From NCBI RefSeq assembly GCF_041886205.1, contig NZ_CP169029.1: DNA of 64,000 nt; one strand, given 5' to 3'. A program made the translations under genes and the position numbers. The first letter of the stretch is position 1. The number at the start of each line of letters is the position of its first letter. The notes beneath the pieces are model-generated. The model was not told where the DNA came from, made no database searches, and saw nothing but the letters and a program-made list of their open reading frames with translations. This stretch comes from Escherichia coli (GTDB lineage: Bacteria; Pseudomonadota; Gammaproteobacteria; Enterobacterales; Enterobacteriaceae). Below, piece after piece: positions 34,842 through 55,041 of this stretch.

Positions 34842-34930
34842 AAAGACTCCAGATGATCGATGGTTCTATTGTGCTTCTTCCAGTTTGAGAAATAAAATTG
34901 ATTTATTGCATCCATTCATGAAGAAAACAG

Positions 34931-35857
34931 ATGAATTATTCTTTAAAACAATTAAAGGTTTTCGTCACAGTAGCGCAGGAGAAAAGTTTTAGTCGTGCAG
35001 GAGAGCGTATCGGCTTGAGCCAGTCGGCAGTAAGTCACAGTGTGAAGGAGCTGGAAAATCATACTGGTGTTCGCCTGCTGGACAGAACCACGCGTGAAGT
35101 GGTGCTTACAGATGCAGGGCAGCAGTTGGCTTTGCGTCTTGAGCGACTGCTGGATGAACTTAACAGCACGTTGCGCGATACCGGGCGTATGGGGCAACAA
35201 CTGAGCGGAAAAGTTCGGGTCGCTGCCAGCCAGACCATTTCCGCGCATCTTATTCCGCAATGCATTGCTGAAAGCCATCGCCGCTATCCAGATATTCAGT
35301 TTGTCCTGCACGATCGTCCGCAGCAGTGGGTGATGGAAAGTATTCGCCAGGGAGATGTCGACTTTGGCATCGTCATCGATCCAGGCCCAGTGGGCGATCT
35401 GCAATGTGAAGCGATTCTTTCCGAGCCTTTCTTTCTGCTTTGCCATCGCGATAGCGCTTTGGCCGTGGAAGATTATGTACCCTGGCAGGCATTGCAGGGA
35501 GCGAAATTGGTGTTGCAGGATTACGCGTCAGGCAGCCGACCGCTGATTGACGCAGCGCTGGCGCGCAATGGTATTCAGGCGAATATTGTGCAGGAGATTG
35601 GACATCCGGCGACGCTGTTCCCGATGGTAGCCGCAGGCATCGGCATCAGTATTCTTCCCGCACTGGCGCTACCATTGCCTGAAGGTAGCCCACTGGTGGT
35701 AAAGCGCATTACGCCGGTTGTTGAACGCCAGTTGATGCTGGTGCGCAGGAAGAACCGTTCACTTTCCACCGCCGCTGAAGCGTTATGGGACGTGGTACGA
35801 GACCAGGGCAATGCGCTAATGGCTGGTCGGGAAGGGGATCCGTTGTATCAGATATAG
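34931..35857 (+). CDS. yfeR: LysR-family transcriptional regulator YfeR
   Basis: 308 aa; N-terminal LysR HTH. Confidence 0.82.
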
Positions 35858-36189
35858 ATATCGATATGAGTCGTTTTTTCAACAGGATTTAGAAGGGATA
35901 CATTCAGAGACAAACGCTGCTCTTTCTCCTGCGCCTTTTCTGCCTGCTGTTTCTGCAACTGCGCCAGTTGTGTTTCCAGTAGGGTGATTTGCTGTTGAAT
36001 CAATTCGGCCTGTTTTTGCTTGTCTTCAGCACTGCCGCTAGTGTCTACAATCTCTTTAATTTGTTGAGTGAGTTTGATGATTTGCTGACTTATCCGCGCG
36101 ATTTGTGAAGCAACATCGCTACCTTGTGATGCCCTGTTACTACTCTGTGTTTGTATGGAAGGAATTGAAGTTGAAGAGATAGTGGCCAT
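35848..36189 (-). CDS. FlxA-like small glutamine-rich coiled-coil protein (hypothetical)
   Basis: 113-aa ORF with GAGGA SD 7 nt upstream of ATG; Q/K/L/I-rich heptad pattern resembling FlxA-family proteins; sigma-28-like promoter upstream; 3' end overlaps yfeR by 10 nt. Confidence 0.55.
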
Positions 36190-36217
36190 TGTTCAGTCCT
36201 CGTCACTGTACGAGGTA

Positions 36218-36244
36218 ATATCGGTAGAAGAACAAGGAACTTGA
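36218..36244 (-). promoter_or_regulatory. Putative sigma-28 (FliA) promoter for the FlxA-like ORF: TCAAGTTC-N11-ACCGATAT
   Basis: 6/8 and 6/8 matches to TAAAGTTT-N11-GCCGATAA with the correct 11-nt spacer, about 30 nt upstream of the ATG. Confidence 0.35.
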
Positions 36245-36269
36245 GAAGAAAAATCAATCTTACAAATCG

Positions 36270-39404: not shown

Positions 39405-39480
<76 letters not shown>

Positions 39481-39687: not shown

Positions 39688-41877
39688 ATGTTTGTGGAGC
39701 ATAACCTGATAAAAAATATCAAGATATTCACACTAGCGTTTACGCTCACCGTGGTACTTATTCAGCTATCCCGTTTTATTTCGCCACTTGCCATTATCCA
39801 TTCCAGTTATATCTTTCTGGCGTGGATGCCACTGTGCGTAATGCTGTCAATCTTGTTTATCTTTGGCTGGCGCGGTGTCGTTCCCGTTTTATGCGGGATG
39901 TTTTGCACCAATCTGTGGAACTTTCATCTCTCTTTTTTACAGACTGCGGTCATGCTCGGTAGCCAGACGTTTGTCGTGTTGTGTGCCTGCGCAATATTAC
40001 GCTGGCAGCTGGGGACGCGTTGGCGTTATGGATTGACCAGCCGATATGTCTGGCAACGTCTGTTCTGGCTTGGTTTGGTGACGCCGATCGGCATCAAATG
40101 CAGCATGTATCTTGTGGGGAGCTTCTTTGATTTCCCGCTAAAGATATCCACCTTTTTCGGCGATGCGGATGCCATTTTCACGGTTGTTGATTTACTAAGC
40201 CTTTTCACCGCTGTGCTGATTTACAACATGCTTTTCTACTATCTCACTCGCATGATTGTAAGTCCCCACTTTGCGCAGATATTGTGGCGCAGGGATATCG
40301 CGCCGTCGTTGGGCAAAGAGAAACGCGCATTTACCTTAAGCTGGCTGGCAGCGTTAAGCGTGCTGCTACTTCTGTTGTGCACACCTTATGAAAACGACTT
40401 TATTGCCGGTTACCTGGTACCCGTTTTCTTCATCATCTTTACCCTCGGGGTCGGTAAGCTTCGCTATCCGTTTTTAAATCTCACCTGGGCTGTTTCAACG
40501 CTTTGCCTTCTGAATTACAACCAGAACTTTTTGCAAGGGGTGGAAACCGAATATTCGCTGGCATTTATTCTCGCGGTGCTGATTTCCTTTAGCGTTTGCC
40601 TGCTCTATATGGTGCGCATTTATCATCGCAGTGAATGGCTTAATCGCCGCTGGCATTTGCAGGCGCTGACAGATCCGTTAACGCTCCTACCCAACTTTCG
40701 TGCGTTGGAACAAGCGCCGGAGCAAGAGGCGGGCAAGAGTTTTTGCTGCCTGCGCATTGATAATCTTGAGTTTATGAGTCGTCATTACGGCTTAATGATG
40801 CGCGTTCACTGTATCCGCTCAATTTGCCGTACGCTGCTGCCGTTGATGCAGGAAAACGAAAAGTTATATCAATTGCCTGGTAGTGAACTGCTGTTAGTGC
40901 TGAGCGGGCCGGAAACGGAAGGGCGACTCCAGCATATGGTTAACATCCTGAATAGTCGGCAAATTCACTGGAACAATACCGGGCTGGATATGGGCTATGG
41001 TGCTGCCTGGGGGCGTTTTGATGGAAATCAGGAAACCCTGCAACCCTTGTTGGGGCAGTTAAGCTGGCTGGCGGAGCAATCCTGCGCACAACATCATGTG
41101 CTGGCGCTGGATAGCAGAGAGGAGATGGTTTCCGGGCAGACCACTAAACAAGTGCTATTGCTGAATACCATTCGCGCGGCGTTAGATCAGGGGGATTTGC
41201 TGCTCTACGCCCAGCCCATTCGCAACAAAGAGGGTGAAGGTTATGATGAGATCCTCGCGCGACTGAAATATGACGGCGGCATTATGACCCCGGATAAGTT
41301 TCTGCCCCTTATTGCTCAGTTTAACCTTAGCGCGCGTTTTGATTTGCAAGTGCTGGAATCCCTGTTGAAGTGGCTTGCAACACACCCTTGCGACAAAAAA
41401 GGTCCACGCTTTTCAGTCAATTTAATGCCGCTCACGCTGCTGCAAAAGAATATTGCCGGGCGGATTATTCGTCTATTTAAGCGTTATCACATCTCCCCGC
41501 AGGCGGTCATTCTTGAGATCACCGAGGAGCAGGCGTTTTCTAACGCAGAAAGCAGCATGTACAACATCGAGCAGCTGCATAAGTTTGGTTTCCGGATTGC
41601 GATTGATGACTTTGGCACCGGCTATGCCAACTACGAACGGTTAAAGCGTTTGCAGGCTGATATCATCAAAATTGATGGCGTCTTTGTGAAAGATATCGTC
41701 ACGAACACGCTGGATGCGATGATTGTGAGATCAATTACCGATCTGGCGAAAGCGAAGTCATTGAGTGTGGTCGCGGAGTTTGTCGAGACGCAACAGCAGC
41801 AGGCGCTATTGCATAAGCTCGGGGTGCAATATCTGCAAGGGTATTTGATTGGTCGCCCGCAGCCATTAGCTGATTAA
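39688..41877 (+). CDS. pdeA: Membrane-anchored GGDEF/EAL-domain c-di-GMP phosphodiesterase YfeA/PdeA
   Basis: ORF track 39628..41877; ATG at 39688 gives 729 aa; N-terminal TM segments, C-terminal EAL domain (EVTE ... DDFGTGYA). Confidence 0.82.
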   Translation: MFVEHNLIKNIKIFTLAFTLTVVLIQLSRFISPLAIIHSSYIFLAWMPLCVMLSILFIFGWRGVVPVLCGMFCTNLWNFHLSFLQTAVMLGSQTFVVLCACAILRWQLGTRWRYGLTSRYVWQRLFWLGLVTPIGIKCSMYLVGSFFDFPLKISTFFGDADAIFTVVDLLSLFTAVLIYNMLFYYLTRMIVSPHFAQILWRRDIAPSLGKEKRAFTLSWLAALSVLLLLLCTPYENDFIAGYLVPVFFIIFTLGVGKLRYPFLNLTWAVSTLCLLNYNQNFLQGVETEYSLAFILAVLISFSVCLLYMVRIYHRSEWLNRRWHLQALTDPLTLLPNFRALEQAPEQEAGKSFCCLRIDNLEFMSRHYGLMMRVHCIRSICRTLLPLMQENEKLYQLPGSELLLVLSGPETEGRLQHMVNILNSRQIHWNNTGLDMGYGAAWGRFDGNQETLQPLLGQLSWLAEQSCAQHHVLALDSREEMVSGQTTKQVLLLNTIRAALDQGDLLLYAQPIRNKEGEGYDEILARLKYDGGIMTPDKFLPLIAQFNLSARFDLQVLESLLKWLATHPCDKKGPRFSVNLMPLTLLQKNIAGRIIRLFKRYHISPQAVILEITEEQAFSNAESSMYNIEQLHKFGFRIAIDDFGTGYANYERLKRLQADIIKIDGVFVKDIVTNTLDAMIVRSITDLAKAKSLSVVAEFVETQQQQALLHKLGVQYLQGYLIGRPQPLAD

Positions 41878-41884
41878 CAGGCGT

Positions 41885-41917
41885 AAAAAAGCCGGGGAAT
41901 TATCCCCGGCTTTTTTA
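41885..41917. terminator. Bidirectional intrinsic terminator between convergent pdeA and nupC
   Basis: Hairpin GCCGGGG-AATTATC-CCCGGC flanked by A6 and T6. Confidence 0.75.
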
Positions 41918-41926
41918 TGTATGGTC

Positions 41927-43129
41927 TTACAGCACCAGTGCTGCGATTGACGCCGACAGCACACTCACCAGGGTAGAGCCGTAAACCAGTTTCAGACCGA
42001 AGCGAGAAACCACGTTACCTTGCTCTTCATTCAGGCCTTTAACTGCACCTGCGATAATCCCGATTGAAGAGAAGTTAGCGAAGGAAACCAGGAACACAGA
42101 GATGATGCCTTCAGCACGCGGAGAGAGCGTGGAAGCAATTTTCTGCAGATCCATCATCGCAACGAACTCGTTGGAAACCAGTTTGGTCGCCATGATACTG
42201 CCCACTTGCAGTGCTTCACTGGAAGGAACACCCATCACCCATGCAATCGGATAGAAGATGTAGCCCAGGATGCCCTGGAAGGAGATGCTGTAGCCAAACC
42301 AGCCAGTCACAGTAGCAAACAGTGCGTTCAGTGCGGCGATCAGGGCGATAAAGCCGATCAGCATCGCGGCAACGATAATGGCAACCTTGAAACCTGCCAG
42401 AATGTATTCACCCAGCATTTCGAAGAAGCTCTGACCTTCGTGCAGGTTGGACATCTGAATGTTTTCTTCACTGGCATCAACACGGTAAGGGTTGATCAGC
42501 GACAGCACGATAAAGGTGCTGAACATGTTCAGTACCAGCGCCGCAACGACATATTTCGGCTCCAGCATGGTCATGTATGCACCAACGATGGACATAGATA
42601 CGGTGGACATCGCCGTTGCTGCCATGGTGTACATACGATTGCGGGAGATTTTGCCGAGGATGTCTTTATAGGCAATAAAGTTTTCAGACTGACCCAGAAT
42701 CAGGGAGCTGACGGCGTTAAAGGATTCCAGTTTGCCCATGCCGTTGACTTTGGAGAGCAGGAAACCAATTGCGCGGATAATCACCGGCAACACGCGAATG
42801 TGCTGGAGAATACCGATCAGTGCAGAGATAAAGACGATTGGGCACAGCACTTTCAGGAAGAAGAATGCCAGGCCTTGATCATTCATGCTACCAAAGACGA
42901 AGTTAGTCCCTTCGTTGGCAAATCCGAGCAGTTTTTCGAACATTTCGGAGAAGCCTTTCACGAAGCCTAAACCAACGTCGGAGTTCAGGAAGAACCACGC
43001 CAGTAACACTTCGATAACAAGCAGTTGAATAACATAACGGATACGAATTTTTTTGCGGTCGCTGCTTACCAGCAGTGCGAGAATCGCAACAACGGCAAGT
43101 GCCAGTACAAAATGAAGGACGCGGTCCAT
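41927..43129 (-). CDS. nupC: Nucleoside:H+ symporter NupC (CNT family)
   Basis: ORF track 41927..43168; ATG at 43129 gives 400 aa ([17 protein letters not shown]). Confidence 0.9.
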
Positions 43130-51685: not shown

Positions 51686-54181
51686 ATGTTAACGATTCAA
51701 TTTCTCTGTCCTTTGCCTAACGGTCTACATGCTCGTCCGGCGTGGGAACTTAAAGAGCAGTGCAGCCAGTGGCAAAGCGAAATCACTTTTATTAACCATC
51801 GCCAGAACGCAAAGGCCGATGCCAAAAGCTCGCTGGCGCTGATTGGCACCGGCACCCTATTTAATGACAGTTGCAGCCTGAACATTAGCGGCAGCGATGA
51901 AGAGCAGGCGCGGCGCGTGCTGGAAGAGTATATCCAGGTGCGCTTTATCGACAGCGACAGCGTTCAGCCAACGCAGGCAGAACTGACGGCGCATCCGCTG
52001 CCGCGTTCATTAAGCCGCCTTAACCCGGATTTACTGTACGGCAACGTGCTGGCAAGCGGCGTCGGCGTGGGTACACTGACCCTGTTACAAAGCGACAGCC
52101 TCGACAGTTACCGGGCGATCCCGGCCAGTGCGCAAGACTCTACCCGTCTGGAGCACAGCCTGGCAACGCTTGCCGAGCAACTGAACCAGCAGTTGCGTGA
52201 GCGTGACGGCGAAAGCAAAACTATCCTCAGCGCCCATTTATCGCTGATTCAGGATGATGAGTTCGCGGGCAATATCCGTCGCCTGATGGCAGAACAGCAT
52301 CAGGGGCTGGGGGCGGCGATCATCAGCAATATGGAGCAGGTTTGCGACAAGCTTTCTGCCTCTGCCAGCGATTATCTGCGCGAACGTGTTAGCGACATTC
52401 GCGATATCAGCGAACAGTTGCTGCATATCACCTGGCCGGAACTGAAGCCGCGCAACAAGCTGGTGCTGGAAAAACCGACTATTCTGGTGGCCGAGGATTT
52501 AACCCCAAGCCAGTTTTTGAGCCTCGATTTAAAAAATCTTGCAGGCATGATTCTGGAGAAAACTGGGCGCACCTCGCATACCCTGATTCTGGCCCGTGCC
52601 TCGGCGATCCCGGTACTGAGCGGCCTGCCGCTGGATGCGATTGCCCGTTATGCCGGGCAACCGGCGGTGCTTGACGCCCAGTGCGGCGTGCTGGCGATTA
52701 ACCCGAATGACGCGGTGAGCGGTTATTATCAGGTTGCGCAGACGCTGGCGGATAAACGTCAGCAACAACAGGCGCAGGCCGCCGCGCAGCTGGCCTATTC
52801 CCGTGATAACAAGCGCATTGATATCGCAGCGAATATCGGCACCGCTCTGGAAGCACCAGGCGCGTTTGCCAACGGCGCGGAAGGCGTCGGGCTGTTCCGT
52901 ACCGAAATGCTCTATATGGATCGCGAAAGCGCGCCGGACGAGCAGGAGCAATTTGAAGCCTACCAGCAGGTGCTACTGGCAGCGGGCGACAAGCCGATTA
53001 TCTTCCGCACAATGGACATCGGAGGCGATAAAAGCATTCCTTATCTGAATATTCCCCAGGAAGAGAACCCGTTCCTCGGCTATCGCGCGGTACGTATTTA
53101 CCCGGAATTTGCTGGCCTGTTCCGCACTCAACTGCGGGCCATTTTGCGCGCCGCCAGTTTCGGCAACGCCCAGTTGATGATCCCGATGGTCCACAGCCTC
53201 GATCAGATCTTATGGGTGAAGGGCGAGATCCAAAAAGCGATCGTTGAGCTTAAGCGCGATGGCCTGCGTCATGCAGAGACGATTACTCTGGGTATCATGG
53301 TGGAAGTGCCGTCGGTGTGCTACATCATCGACCACTTCTGCGATGAGGTCGATTTCTTCAGTATCGGTTCTAACGACATGACCCAGTATCTGTATGCGGT
53401 CGATCGTAATAACCCGCGCGTATCGCCGCTATATAACCCGATTACGCCATCGTTCCTGCGCATGTTGCAGCAGATTGTTACCACTGCGCATCAGCGGGGC
53501 AAATGGGTAGGCATTTGCGGTGAACTGGGCGGTGAAAGCCGTTATCTGCCGCTACTGCTTGGGCTGGGCCTGGATGAGCTGAGTATGAGTAGCCCGCGCA
53601 TTCCGGCAGTGAAAAGCCAGCTTCGTCAACTGGATAGCGAGGCGTGTCGGGAACTGGCGCGTCAGGCATGTGAATGCCGCAGTGCGCAGGAAATTGAAGC
53701 GTTACTCACCGCCTTTACGCCGGAAGAAGACGTTCGCCCACTGCTGGCGCTGGAGAATATCTTTGTTGATCAGGATTTTAGCAATAAAGAGCAGGCGATC
53801 CAGTTCCTGTGCGGCAACCTCGGAGTTAACGGGCGTACTGAACATCCGTTTGAGCTGGAAGAAGATGTCTGGCAGCGGGAAGAGATTGTCACTACCGGCG
53901 TTGGTTTTGGCGTGGCGATCCCGCACACCAAATCTCAGTGGATCCGTCATTCCAGTATCAGCATTGCCCGGCTGGTGAAACCGGTTGACTGGCAGTCAGA
54001 GATGGGCGAAGTCGAACTGGTGATCATGCTGACGTTGGGTGCTAACGAAGGGATGAACCATGTGAAAGTCTTCTCGCAGCTGGCGCGTAAACTGGTGAAT
54101 AAACACTTCCGCCAGTCGTTGTTTGCCGCGCAAGATGCACAAAGCATCCTGACGCTGCTGGAAACGGAATTAACCTTCTGA
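51686..54181 (+). CDS. fryA: PTS multiphosphoryl transfer protein FryA (HPr-like, Enzyme I-like and EIIA-like domains)
   Basis: 831 aa; internal region paralogous to PtsI (GLFRTE, GSNDMTQY motifs). Confidence 0.85.
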   Translation: MLTIQFLCPLPNGLHARPAWELKEQCSQWQSEITFINHRQNAKADAKSSLALIGTGTLFNDSCSLNISGSDEEQARRVLEEYIQVRFIDSDSVQPTQAELTAHPLPRSLSRLNPDLLYGNVLASGVGVGTLTLLQSDSLDSYRAIPASAQDSTRLEHSLATLAEQLNQQLRERDGESKTILSAHLSLIQDDEFAGNIRRLMAEQHQGLGAAIISNMEQVCDKLSASASDYLRERVSDIRDISEQLLHITWPELKPRNKLVLEKPTILVAEDLTPSQFLSLDLKNLAGMILEKTGRTSHTLILARASAIPVLSGLPLDAIARYAGQPAVLDAQCGVLAINPNDAVSGYYQVAQTLADKRQQQQAQAAAQLAYSRDNKRIDIAANIGTALEAPGAFANGAEGVGLFRTEMLYMDRESAPDEQEQFEAYQQVLLAAGDKPIIFRTMDIGGDKSIPYLNIPQEENPFLGYRAVRIYPEFAGLFRTQLRAILRAASFGNAQLMIPMVHSLDQILWVKGEIQKAIVELKRDGLRHAETITLGIMVEVPSVCYIIDHFCDEVDFFSIGSNDMTQYLYAVDRNNPRVSPLYNPITPSFLRMLQQIVTTAHQRGKWVGICGELGGESRYLPLLLGLGLDELSMSSPRIPAVKSQLRQLDSEACRELARQACECRSAQEIEALLTAFTPEEDVRPLLALENIFVDQDFSNKEQAIQFLCGNLGVNGRTEHPFELEEDVWQREEIVTTGVGFGVAIPHTKSQWIRHSSISIARLVKPVDWQSEMGEVELVIMLTLGANEGMNHVKVFSQLARKLVNKHFRQSLFAAQDAQSILTLLETELTF

Positions 54182-54183
54182 CG

Positions 54184-55041
54184 TTAGCCCTGAAAACGGG
54201 CGCTGTACTCTCCCGGCGTCAGACCAAACTGACGCCGGAAAACGCGACAAAAATAGTCGCTGTCCGGAAAGCCGCAACGCTGCGCCACTTCATGAATTGA
54301 CAGATGATATTTCTGCAAAATCATCCTCGCCTTCGCCATTCGCACCCAACGCACATACTCGATAAAACGCATCGTTCCATGCTGAGCAAACAGTTTTGAC
54401 AGATGATTGGGCGTGATATTAAAAAACTGTGCCACGCTCTCGCGGGTGAGCGGCTGGGCATAATTATCCTGAACCCAGTTACAAATGCTGTGATAAAGAA
54501 AATCGCCGCGCGGCTGCGAATTACCCGGCGGCATATTCACCACGTTGCGGCAAAGATGCAGCAAACTTAATACCAGCGGCTGAATGATATTCTGCTCCAG
54601 CGGCGAACGGCTAAGATGGGTGAGGGCAGTAAGCATTGCTTCACCTTCGCCGCGTTGCAGGCTGGGAAGTTGGATCTGGCGAGCAGGATGCAACAACGAC
54701 GTGGTGCGGCTATCGTAAAACGATAACCCAAGCCAGGTCGGTGCGAACACCAGACTTAACAGCATCACCGGTTTGTTGTTGATCGGTAAATTAGCCGCGC
54801 GTGCCGGAATAAACAGCATTTCTCCTTCCACCATTCGCTGCTGCTTTGCTTCCAGCAGGTTGCCGTATTCGCCGCGTAGCACGATATCCAGACGGGGAAA
54901 ATCAATACATAAACTGCCCACCGGTAATGAGGCAGGCTGGCTGGCAAACCAGACGCGCCCCAGTAGTTGCGGGTTAAGCACCAGGCCGCTGAACAGATCG
55001 GCGAAAAATTGTTGATCGGCGGGCAAGCCTGGTGCTTTCAT
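54184..55041 (-). CDS. ypdC: AraC-family transcriptional regulator YpdC
   Basis: 285 aa; C-terminal AraC HTH. Confidence 0.8.
   Translation of the reverse strand: MKAPGLPADQQFFADLFSGLVLNPQLLGRVWFASQPASLPVGSLCIDFPRLDIVLRGEYGNLLEAKQQRMVEGEMLFIPARAANLPINNKPVMLLSLVFAPTWLGLSFYDSRTTSLLHPARQIQLPSLQRGEGEAMLTALTHLSRSPLEQNIIQPLVLSLLHLCRNVVNMPPGNSQPRGDFLYHSICNWVQDNYAQPLTRESVAQFFNITPNHLSKLFAQHGTMRFIEYVRWVRMAKARMILQKYHLSIHEVAQRCGFPDSDYFCRVFRRQFGLTPGEYSARFQG

Follow-up and report, generated by a model that had tools for sequence, protein, structure and literature searches.

Two groups of described elements come close to the locus considered here. The first is that of the bidirectional terminators, whose signature is a run of A followed by a hairpin and a run of T (Kingsford et al. 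2007, PMC1852404; the TransTermHP model). The second is made up of the insertion hot spots of IS186. The target of this element is 5'-GGGG(N6/N7)CCCC-3', and because the target is palindromic, IS186 can enter it in either orientation; in the K-12 genome such targets are rare (19 N6 and 35 N7 sites) and are hit repeatedly (Lee et al. 2016, PMC5009759). Hot spots with this motif have been reported in the lon promoter, in fimA and in menC (SaiSree et al. 2001, as related by the papers that cite it; PMC5009759).

The stretch of DNA that was analysed, called the window in what follows, is 64 kb of Escherichia coli sequence, and the element of interest in it is the short spacer between the convergent genes pdeA and nupC. 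This spacer is very probably both things at once, a single bidirectional Rho-independent terminator and a recurrent IS186 hot spot, and the window would carry its unoccupied, ancestral allele. Compared with the bidirectional terminators of the Kingsford type, the pdeA/nupC element likewise has a perfect GC-rich stem, a short loop, and an A tract and a T tract, all placed between two stop codons; there is no structural difference between them, and the function of the window's element is read from its sequence. It is worth adding that this element is split by IS186 in K-12, the source of most E. coli 3'-end maps. Compared with the hot spots in lon, fimA and menC, it shares the exact motif, the use of both orientations, a duplication of 10–12 bp and repeated independent hits. 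The pdeA/nupC target, however, is a shared terminator stem-loop, neither a promoter nor a coding sequence, and the cost of an insertion would be the loss of termination, as opposed to the inactivation of a gene at the other three sites.

The Probable Terminator Shared by pdeA and nupC

The names of the two genes were taken from the PGAP annotation of records that match the junction at 98–100% identity. pdeA (yfeA), at 39688–41877 on the + strand, is a gene for a MASE1/EAL cyclic-di-GMP phosphodiesterase, as indicated by the open reading frame, the PGAP annotation of the matching records, and the Pfam domains MASE1 and EAL in its homologues. nupC, at 41927–43129 on the − strand, codes for a nucleoside:H+ symporter of 400 aa (WP_000376337.1), an assignment based on the open reading frame and on the annotation of the matching records; in these records the two products appear as a bifunctional diguanylate cyclase/phosphodiesterase and a nucleoside permease, respectively. 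The stop codon of pdeA (TAA, 41875–41877, + strand) and that of nupC (41927–41929, TTA on the + strand and TAA on the − strand) enclose a convergent intergenic spacer of 49 bp at 41878–41926. The spacer reads CAGGCGT-AAAAAA-GCCGGGGA-ATTA-TCCCCGGC-TTTTTT-ATGTATGGTC, and it is identical in the strains VE-T9 and 6EVA and in the locus L016.

This spacer contains a stem-loop, GCCGGGGA-ATTA-TCCCCGGC, at 41891–41910, with a stem of 8 bp (5' arm 41891–41898, 3' arm 41903–41910) and a loop of 4 nt (41899–41902). The palindrome is perfect, seven of the eight stem pairs are G-C, and the hairpin starts 13 nt past the pdeA stop and 16 nt past the nupC stop. It is directly abutted on one side by an A6 tract (41885–41890), which, read on the − strand, gives the nupC transcript its U6 tract, and on the other side by a T6 tract (41911–41916), which on the + strand does the same for the pdeA transcript. 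The preliminary description had written the hairpin as GCCGGGG-AATTATC-CCCGGC; the sequence so given is the right one, but its division into 7-7-6 misplaces the arms, and the correct parse is 7-6-7, or 8-4-8 if the closing A-T pair is included. When folded as RNA, the 49-mer reaches −30.8 kcal/mol on the + strand (z −7.56) and −25.0 kcal/mol on the − strand (z −7.46), and none of 200 shuffled controls folds as well; the stem-loop alone contributes −16.1 (+) and −17.0 (−) kcal/mol. The sequence, the positions of the stop codons and the folding scores thus all confirm the strong hairpin with A and T tracts that had been noted in the 49-bp gap.

The outermost base of the stem, position 41891, is polymorphic. 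The window has G, while K-12 and O111 strains have A; the A variant turns the outer pair into an A·C mismatch, leaves a stem of 7 bp, and extends the A tract to A7.

Several computational signals around the hairpin were set aside. A simple terminator scan gave a 5-bp mis-parse on the − strand and nothing on the + strand, and it was not relied upon. A promoter-like TTAACA-18-AATTAT at 41874–41903 is at chance level only. In Rfam, no family was found for the pdeA/nupC hairpin, only sub-threshold, generic matches driven by the terminator hairpin at 41881–42039 (−) and 41831–41920 (+): these are Leu_leader, which at 28.7 bits falls well short of its cut-off of 50, and ar35, an alphaproteobacterial sRNA, and they reflect the generic shape of a terminator, not membership in either family.

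Given this anatomy, the hairpin most probably ends transcription that arrives from either gene. A transcript of either pdeA or nupC would fold into the common 8-bp GC-rich hairpin, followed at once by U6, and the hairpin together with U6 would release the RNA polymerase; neither gene would then be read antisense into the other, as judged from the anatomy and from the conservation described below. The bidirectional terminator proposed at the outset is in this way supported by a canonical anatomy on both strands and by conservation, with termination itself as the predicted outcome. There is a different way to look at such a hairpin. Ju et al. and Wang et al. (bioRxiv 10.1101/2022.10.23.513370) argue that many terminators of E. 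coli convergent gene pairs are weak when transcribed in one direction and act through the collision of polymerases, and by analogy the pdeA/nupC hairpin could mainly make polymerases pause or collide, or stabilize RNA 3' ends, with termination brought about by head-on polymerases or by Rho. We consider this unlikely. The collision-type elements are described as unlike intrinsic terminators, whereas the hairpin at this junction is canonical in every part, whichever way it is transcribed: its GC-rich stem is 8 bp long, at −16 to −17 kcal/mol, and an unbroken U6 comes right after it.

Conservation and Ancestry of the Spacer

Orthologous junctions in other species were reached through the orthologues of PdeA. 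Three of them are informative: Salmonella enterica has a spacer of 53 bp with A8-CCGGGGA-TAGC-TCCCCGG-T5, Citrobacter rodentium one of 66 bp with GCCGGGGA-GTAT-TCCCCGGC-T4, and the enterobacterial genome GCA_045626065 one of 45 bp with A4-GCCGGAGA-AAGCG-TCTCCGGC-T5. All three spacers, at 45–66 bp, hold one hairpin each and are free of insertion sequences. The L016 spacer, being identical to that of E. coli, is uninformative as an outgroup. Across the orthologous spacers the hairpin is kept together with a T tract, and usually with an A tract; the stems are conserved or compensated and the loops vary. In a small sample of four lineages there are two compensatory double changes, one of the outer G-C pair to A-T in Salmonella and one of the sixth G-C pair to A-T in GCA_045626065. 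In a MAFFT alignment the hairpin with the 5-nt loop came out displaced, and the alignment was set aside. Stems that are either conserved or changed on both sides, combined with loops that differ, are what one would expect if selection maintains the structure.

Because the outgroups are compact, carry a single hairpin and lack insertion sequences, the compact, empty spacer is best taken as the ancestral form. The preliminary description had regarded the uninserted state as ancestral, and the three outgroups bear this out.

Two-hairpin forms of the spacer do exist. An exact 24-mer scan for the hairpin among species representatives returned E. whittamii only, in which the spacer is 227 bp long (L007, 9232–9458) and has one copy of the hairpin beside each gene with two REP elements between them. 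In E. coli 2020CK-00188 there is a 142-bp spacer with two hairpins and a REP element between them (L008, 2001–2142), and some 13 E. coli genomes are alike. The flanks of these E. coli carriers are only ~95% identical to those of other E. coli, which points to an allele that has diverged or been imported. The two-hairpin form appears to have arisen by the insertion of a REP/BIME element, in the course of which some 20–28 bp of the hairpin were duplicated.

One could turn this order around and derive the 49-bp spacer from a longer, REP-containing spacer like that of E. whittamii, by a deletion between the two direct copies of the hairpin. The existence of the 227-bp form in E. whittamii and of the 142-bp form in about 13 E. 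coli genomes, both with a hairpin by each gene and REP sequence between, fits such a history; yet Salmonella, C. rodentium and GCA_045626065 all have short spacers with a single hairpin, which makes the deletion a very improbable origin. With the compact form as the older one, the two copies are best explained by a REP/BIME insertion that went along with a duplication of the hairpin. The spacer in the window has the hairpin only, with no REP consensus palindromes.

The Probable Terminator as a Target of IS186

The core of the hairpin, GGGG-AATTAT-CCCC (GGGGAATTATCCCC, 41894–41907), is an exact N6 target of IS186. It is unoccupied in the window and is the sole such motif there. One occurrence of GGGG(N6/7)CCCC in 64 kb is about what chance would give (1.1 expected), so that the case for a hot spot does not come from the motif count; it rests on the 941 insertions observed at this junction.

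These insertions emerged from a survey of complete E. coli genomes with a query of 1,049 bp that has the spacer in its middle, which finds matches in 5,424 of 5,426 genomes. The junction is uninterrupted in 4,460 of the 5,426 (82%). In the interrupted genomes, K-12 included, the match breaks at query positions 518–529, inside the hairpin. With queries that span the junction between IS186 and its flank, the element was found in the K-12-like orientation in 474 genomes, a count inflated by the laboratory derivatives of K-12, and in the opposite orientation in 467; together these make up ~17%. About 25 genomes have another junction state. ST2747 (L009, 4431–4720) is among them: a deletion of ~1.4 kb fuses pdeA, from about 41808, to the nupC–mntH intergenic region; the 3' end of pdeA, the terminator and the entire nupC are gone, the C-terminus of pdeA is altered, and no insertion sequence is left at the joint.

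The insertion in K-12 is long annotated. In the MG1655 record (NC_000913.3), 'insertion sequence:IS186C' and insL3 (b2394), the product of which is labelled 'putative IS186/IS421 transposase', lie between nupC (b2393) and pdeA (b2395). The copy of IS186 that the preliminary description placed beside nupC in MG1655 is thus real, with IS186C as its current label, and the alignment with K-12, whose matches split at the query positions given above, places it within the hairpin. At sequence level, the K-12 strain BZKR2G40 has a 1.34-kb insertion sequence within the hairpin loop, and the K-12 strain sequence runs ...CCGGGGAATTATCCC | ATAAGCGCTAACTTAAGGGTTG ... CAACCCTTAAGTTAGCGCTTAT | GGGAATTATCCCCGGC... 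across the two ends of the element. The segment GGGAATTATCCC, which occupies 41895–41906 in the window, flanks IS186 on both sides in filled genomes, and the target-site duplication amounts to 10–12 bp, depending on the assignment of the terminal C/G to the insertion sequence. IS186C with insL3 (b2394) of MG1655 is therefore the filled allele of exactly the site that the window has without IS186C. The K-12 stem differs from the window's in carrying the A variant at its outer base (AAAAAAACCGGGG), a variant also found in empty sites such as that of O111:H- 11128; the A variant accordingly predates the insertion.

How often the site has been entered can be judged from the variation around it. 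The breakpoint is identical in all six filled loci that were read, with GGGAATTATCCC on each side, and the IS186 copies in filled loci differ by 0–1 bases. The G and A variants of position 41891 each occur in both empty and filled sites. K-12 and 510016 combine the K-12-like orientation with the A variant; FCI23 has the same orientation with the G variant, in a flank haplotype ~70 SNPs away from K-12. O111:H8 7-54 and NDM_12_14482 have the opposite orientation with the A variant, and 14EC047 has it with the G variant. All four combinations of orientation and base are present, which calls for at least four independent insertions. Some flanks are nearly identical: K-12 and NDM_12_14482 have IS186 in opposite orientations and flanks that are 2 SNPs apart in 3.1 kb, and the empty O111:H- 11128 differs from the filled O111:H8 7-54 by 1 SNP in the 3.1-kb flank. 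We infer that IS186 entered this one nucleotide position independently at least four times, and fairly recently.

Close pairs of this kind also raise the question of the direction of change, since the window's site could in principle be a revertant, in which IS186 was once present and then left by a precise excision that restored the hairpin. Precise excision of IS186 is known at the lon promoter (PMC3861542), and the empty and filled O111 strains with almost the same flanks (11128 and 7-54, respectively) would fit with loss as well as with gain. A precise excision leaves no trace, so an excised site and a site that was never entered look alike in sequence. The window has no excision footprint, and the site is empty in 82% of the genomes and in all outgroups, which makes a site that was never entered the simpler reading and a reversion hardly probable.

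The wider claim that the window has no insertion sequence was upheld from three directions. With blastn, IS186 gives only chance matches of 13–26 nt in the window. Strain 6EVA runs collinear with the window (99.95% identity) save for one 115-bp indel, and its corresponding 64 kb has no transposase annotation. Three chunks of the window match 17, 157 and 24 of 72,556 plasmid records, against the hundreds expected of an enterobacterial insertion sequence; the matches come from chromosomes wrongly filed as plasmids, from segments of chromosomes and from megaplasmids that bear tRNA genes. For comparison, an IS186 end alone finds 751–792 plasmid places among E. coli records. An IS1A like that of VE-T9, a strain 100% identical to the window over 1 kb at the junction, was considered and rejected: it is absent from the window, and the BLAST match differs there.

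What an insertion does to the terminator follows from where it lands. The hairpin core is the published IS186 target, and the terminator itself is thus the insertion hot spot, destroyed for both genes when it is hit. The transposase of IS186 would prefer the GGGG-N6-CCCC core of the hairpin, leading to recurrent insertion at the terminator; IS186 in the loop would hold the two arms 1.3 kb apart and in this way remove the terminator from both pdeA and nupC. RNAs that run across the junctions of K-12 and 14EC047 fold no better than their shuffles (z −1.25 to +0.41), so that both genes appear to lose the hairpin upon insertion.

It is tempting to go one step further and to ask whether IS186 may favour convergent-gene terminator stems with a GGGG-N6-CCCC core as low-cost sites that couple its own expression to that of host genes. 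If this were true, with the terminator lost, transcription of nupC (in the K-12 orientation) or of pdeA (in the opposite one) would enter the transposase gene. Wherever a filled locus was read, insL points in the same direction as the gene just upstream of it, and the near 1:1 split of orientations is compatible with a coupling of IS186 to host transcription. At a convergent junction, however, co-directionality is automatic, and by itself it is no evidence for coupling; we regard the idea as a doubtful one. A literature search for IS186 paired with nupC or yfeA found no paper.

Other Features of the Window

A few observations were made at some distance from the junction. Upstream of pdeA, only one tRNA-Ala(GGC) gene is present in the window (39405–39480), while K-12 (alaX, alaW), 6EVA, VE-T9 and all other loci read have a tandem pair; one unit of 115 bp makes up the difference. 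The single gene may come from recombination between tandem copies or from a collapse in the assembly. In the eutG–eutH spacer (1448–1732) there is a tandem array of 2.8 copies of a 100-bp unit, with 96% identity between the copies. REP-like palindromes make up the unit, as in an array of the BIME type, and the number of copies seems to be lower in VE-T9. A variable region (34901–36266) separates yfeH from the tRNA-Lys/Val cluster. In the window it contains yfeR and an FlxA-like gene, an arrangement that only 1,196 of 5,426 genomes share when a 4-kb query has to match over 80% or more of its length. At the corresponding place VE-T9 has IS1A and a pseudogene of an MFS transporter, and another E. 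coli record has xapB. Finally, the annotation of 6EVA marks ptsP (fryA in K-12) as frameshifted (L005, 9706–12200, about 51800–54300 of the window), and within 39405–63886 the window and 6EVA differ by one single-base indel.

Conclusions

In having an intact, empty site, the window shows the usual and ancestral state, one that has been documented before. The polymorphism of the site, the target rule of IS186 and the existence of bidirectional terminators are all established. The sole addition of the present analysis is that a terminator shared by two genes is itself an IS186 hot spot, filled in ~17% of the genomes in both orientations and destroyed by the insertion. Beyond the correct annotation of the junction, the significance of this is small. 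It does bear on the use of K-12 as the reference: since K-12 has the derived, IS-disrupted form, its maps of the nupC and pdeA 3' ends are not transferable to strains with the empty site. And since the shared terminator has been filled in ~17% of the genomes by repeated independent insertions, the junction makes a convenient natural marker, and its filled sites a test case for convergent genes that have been stripped of their terminator.
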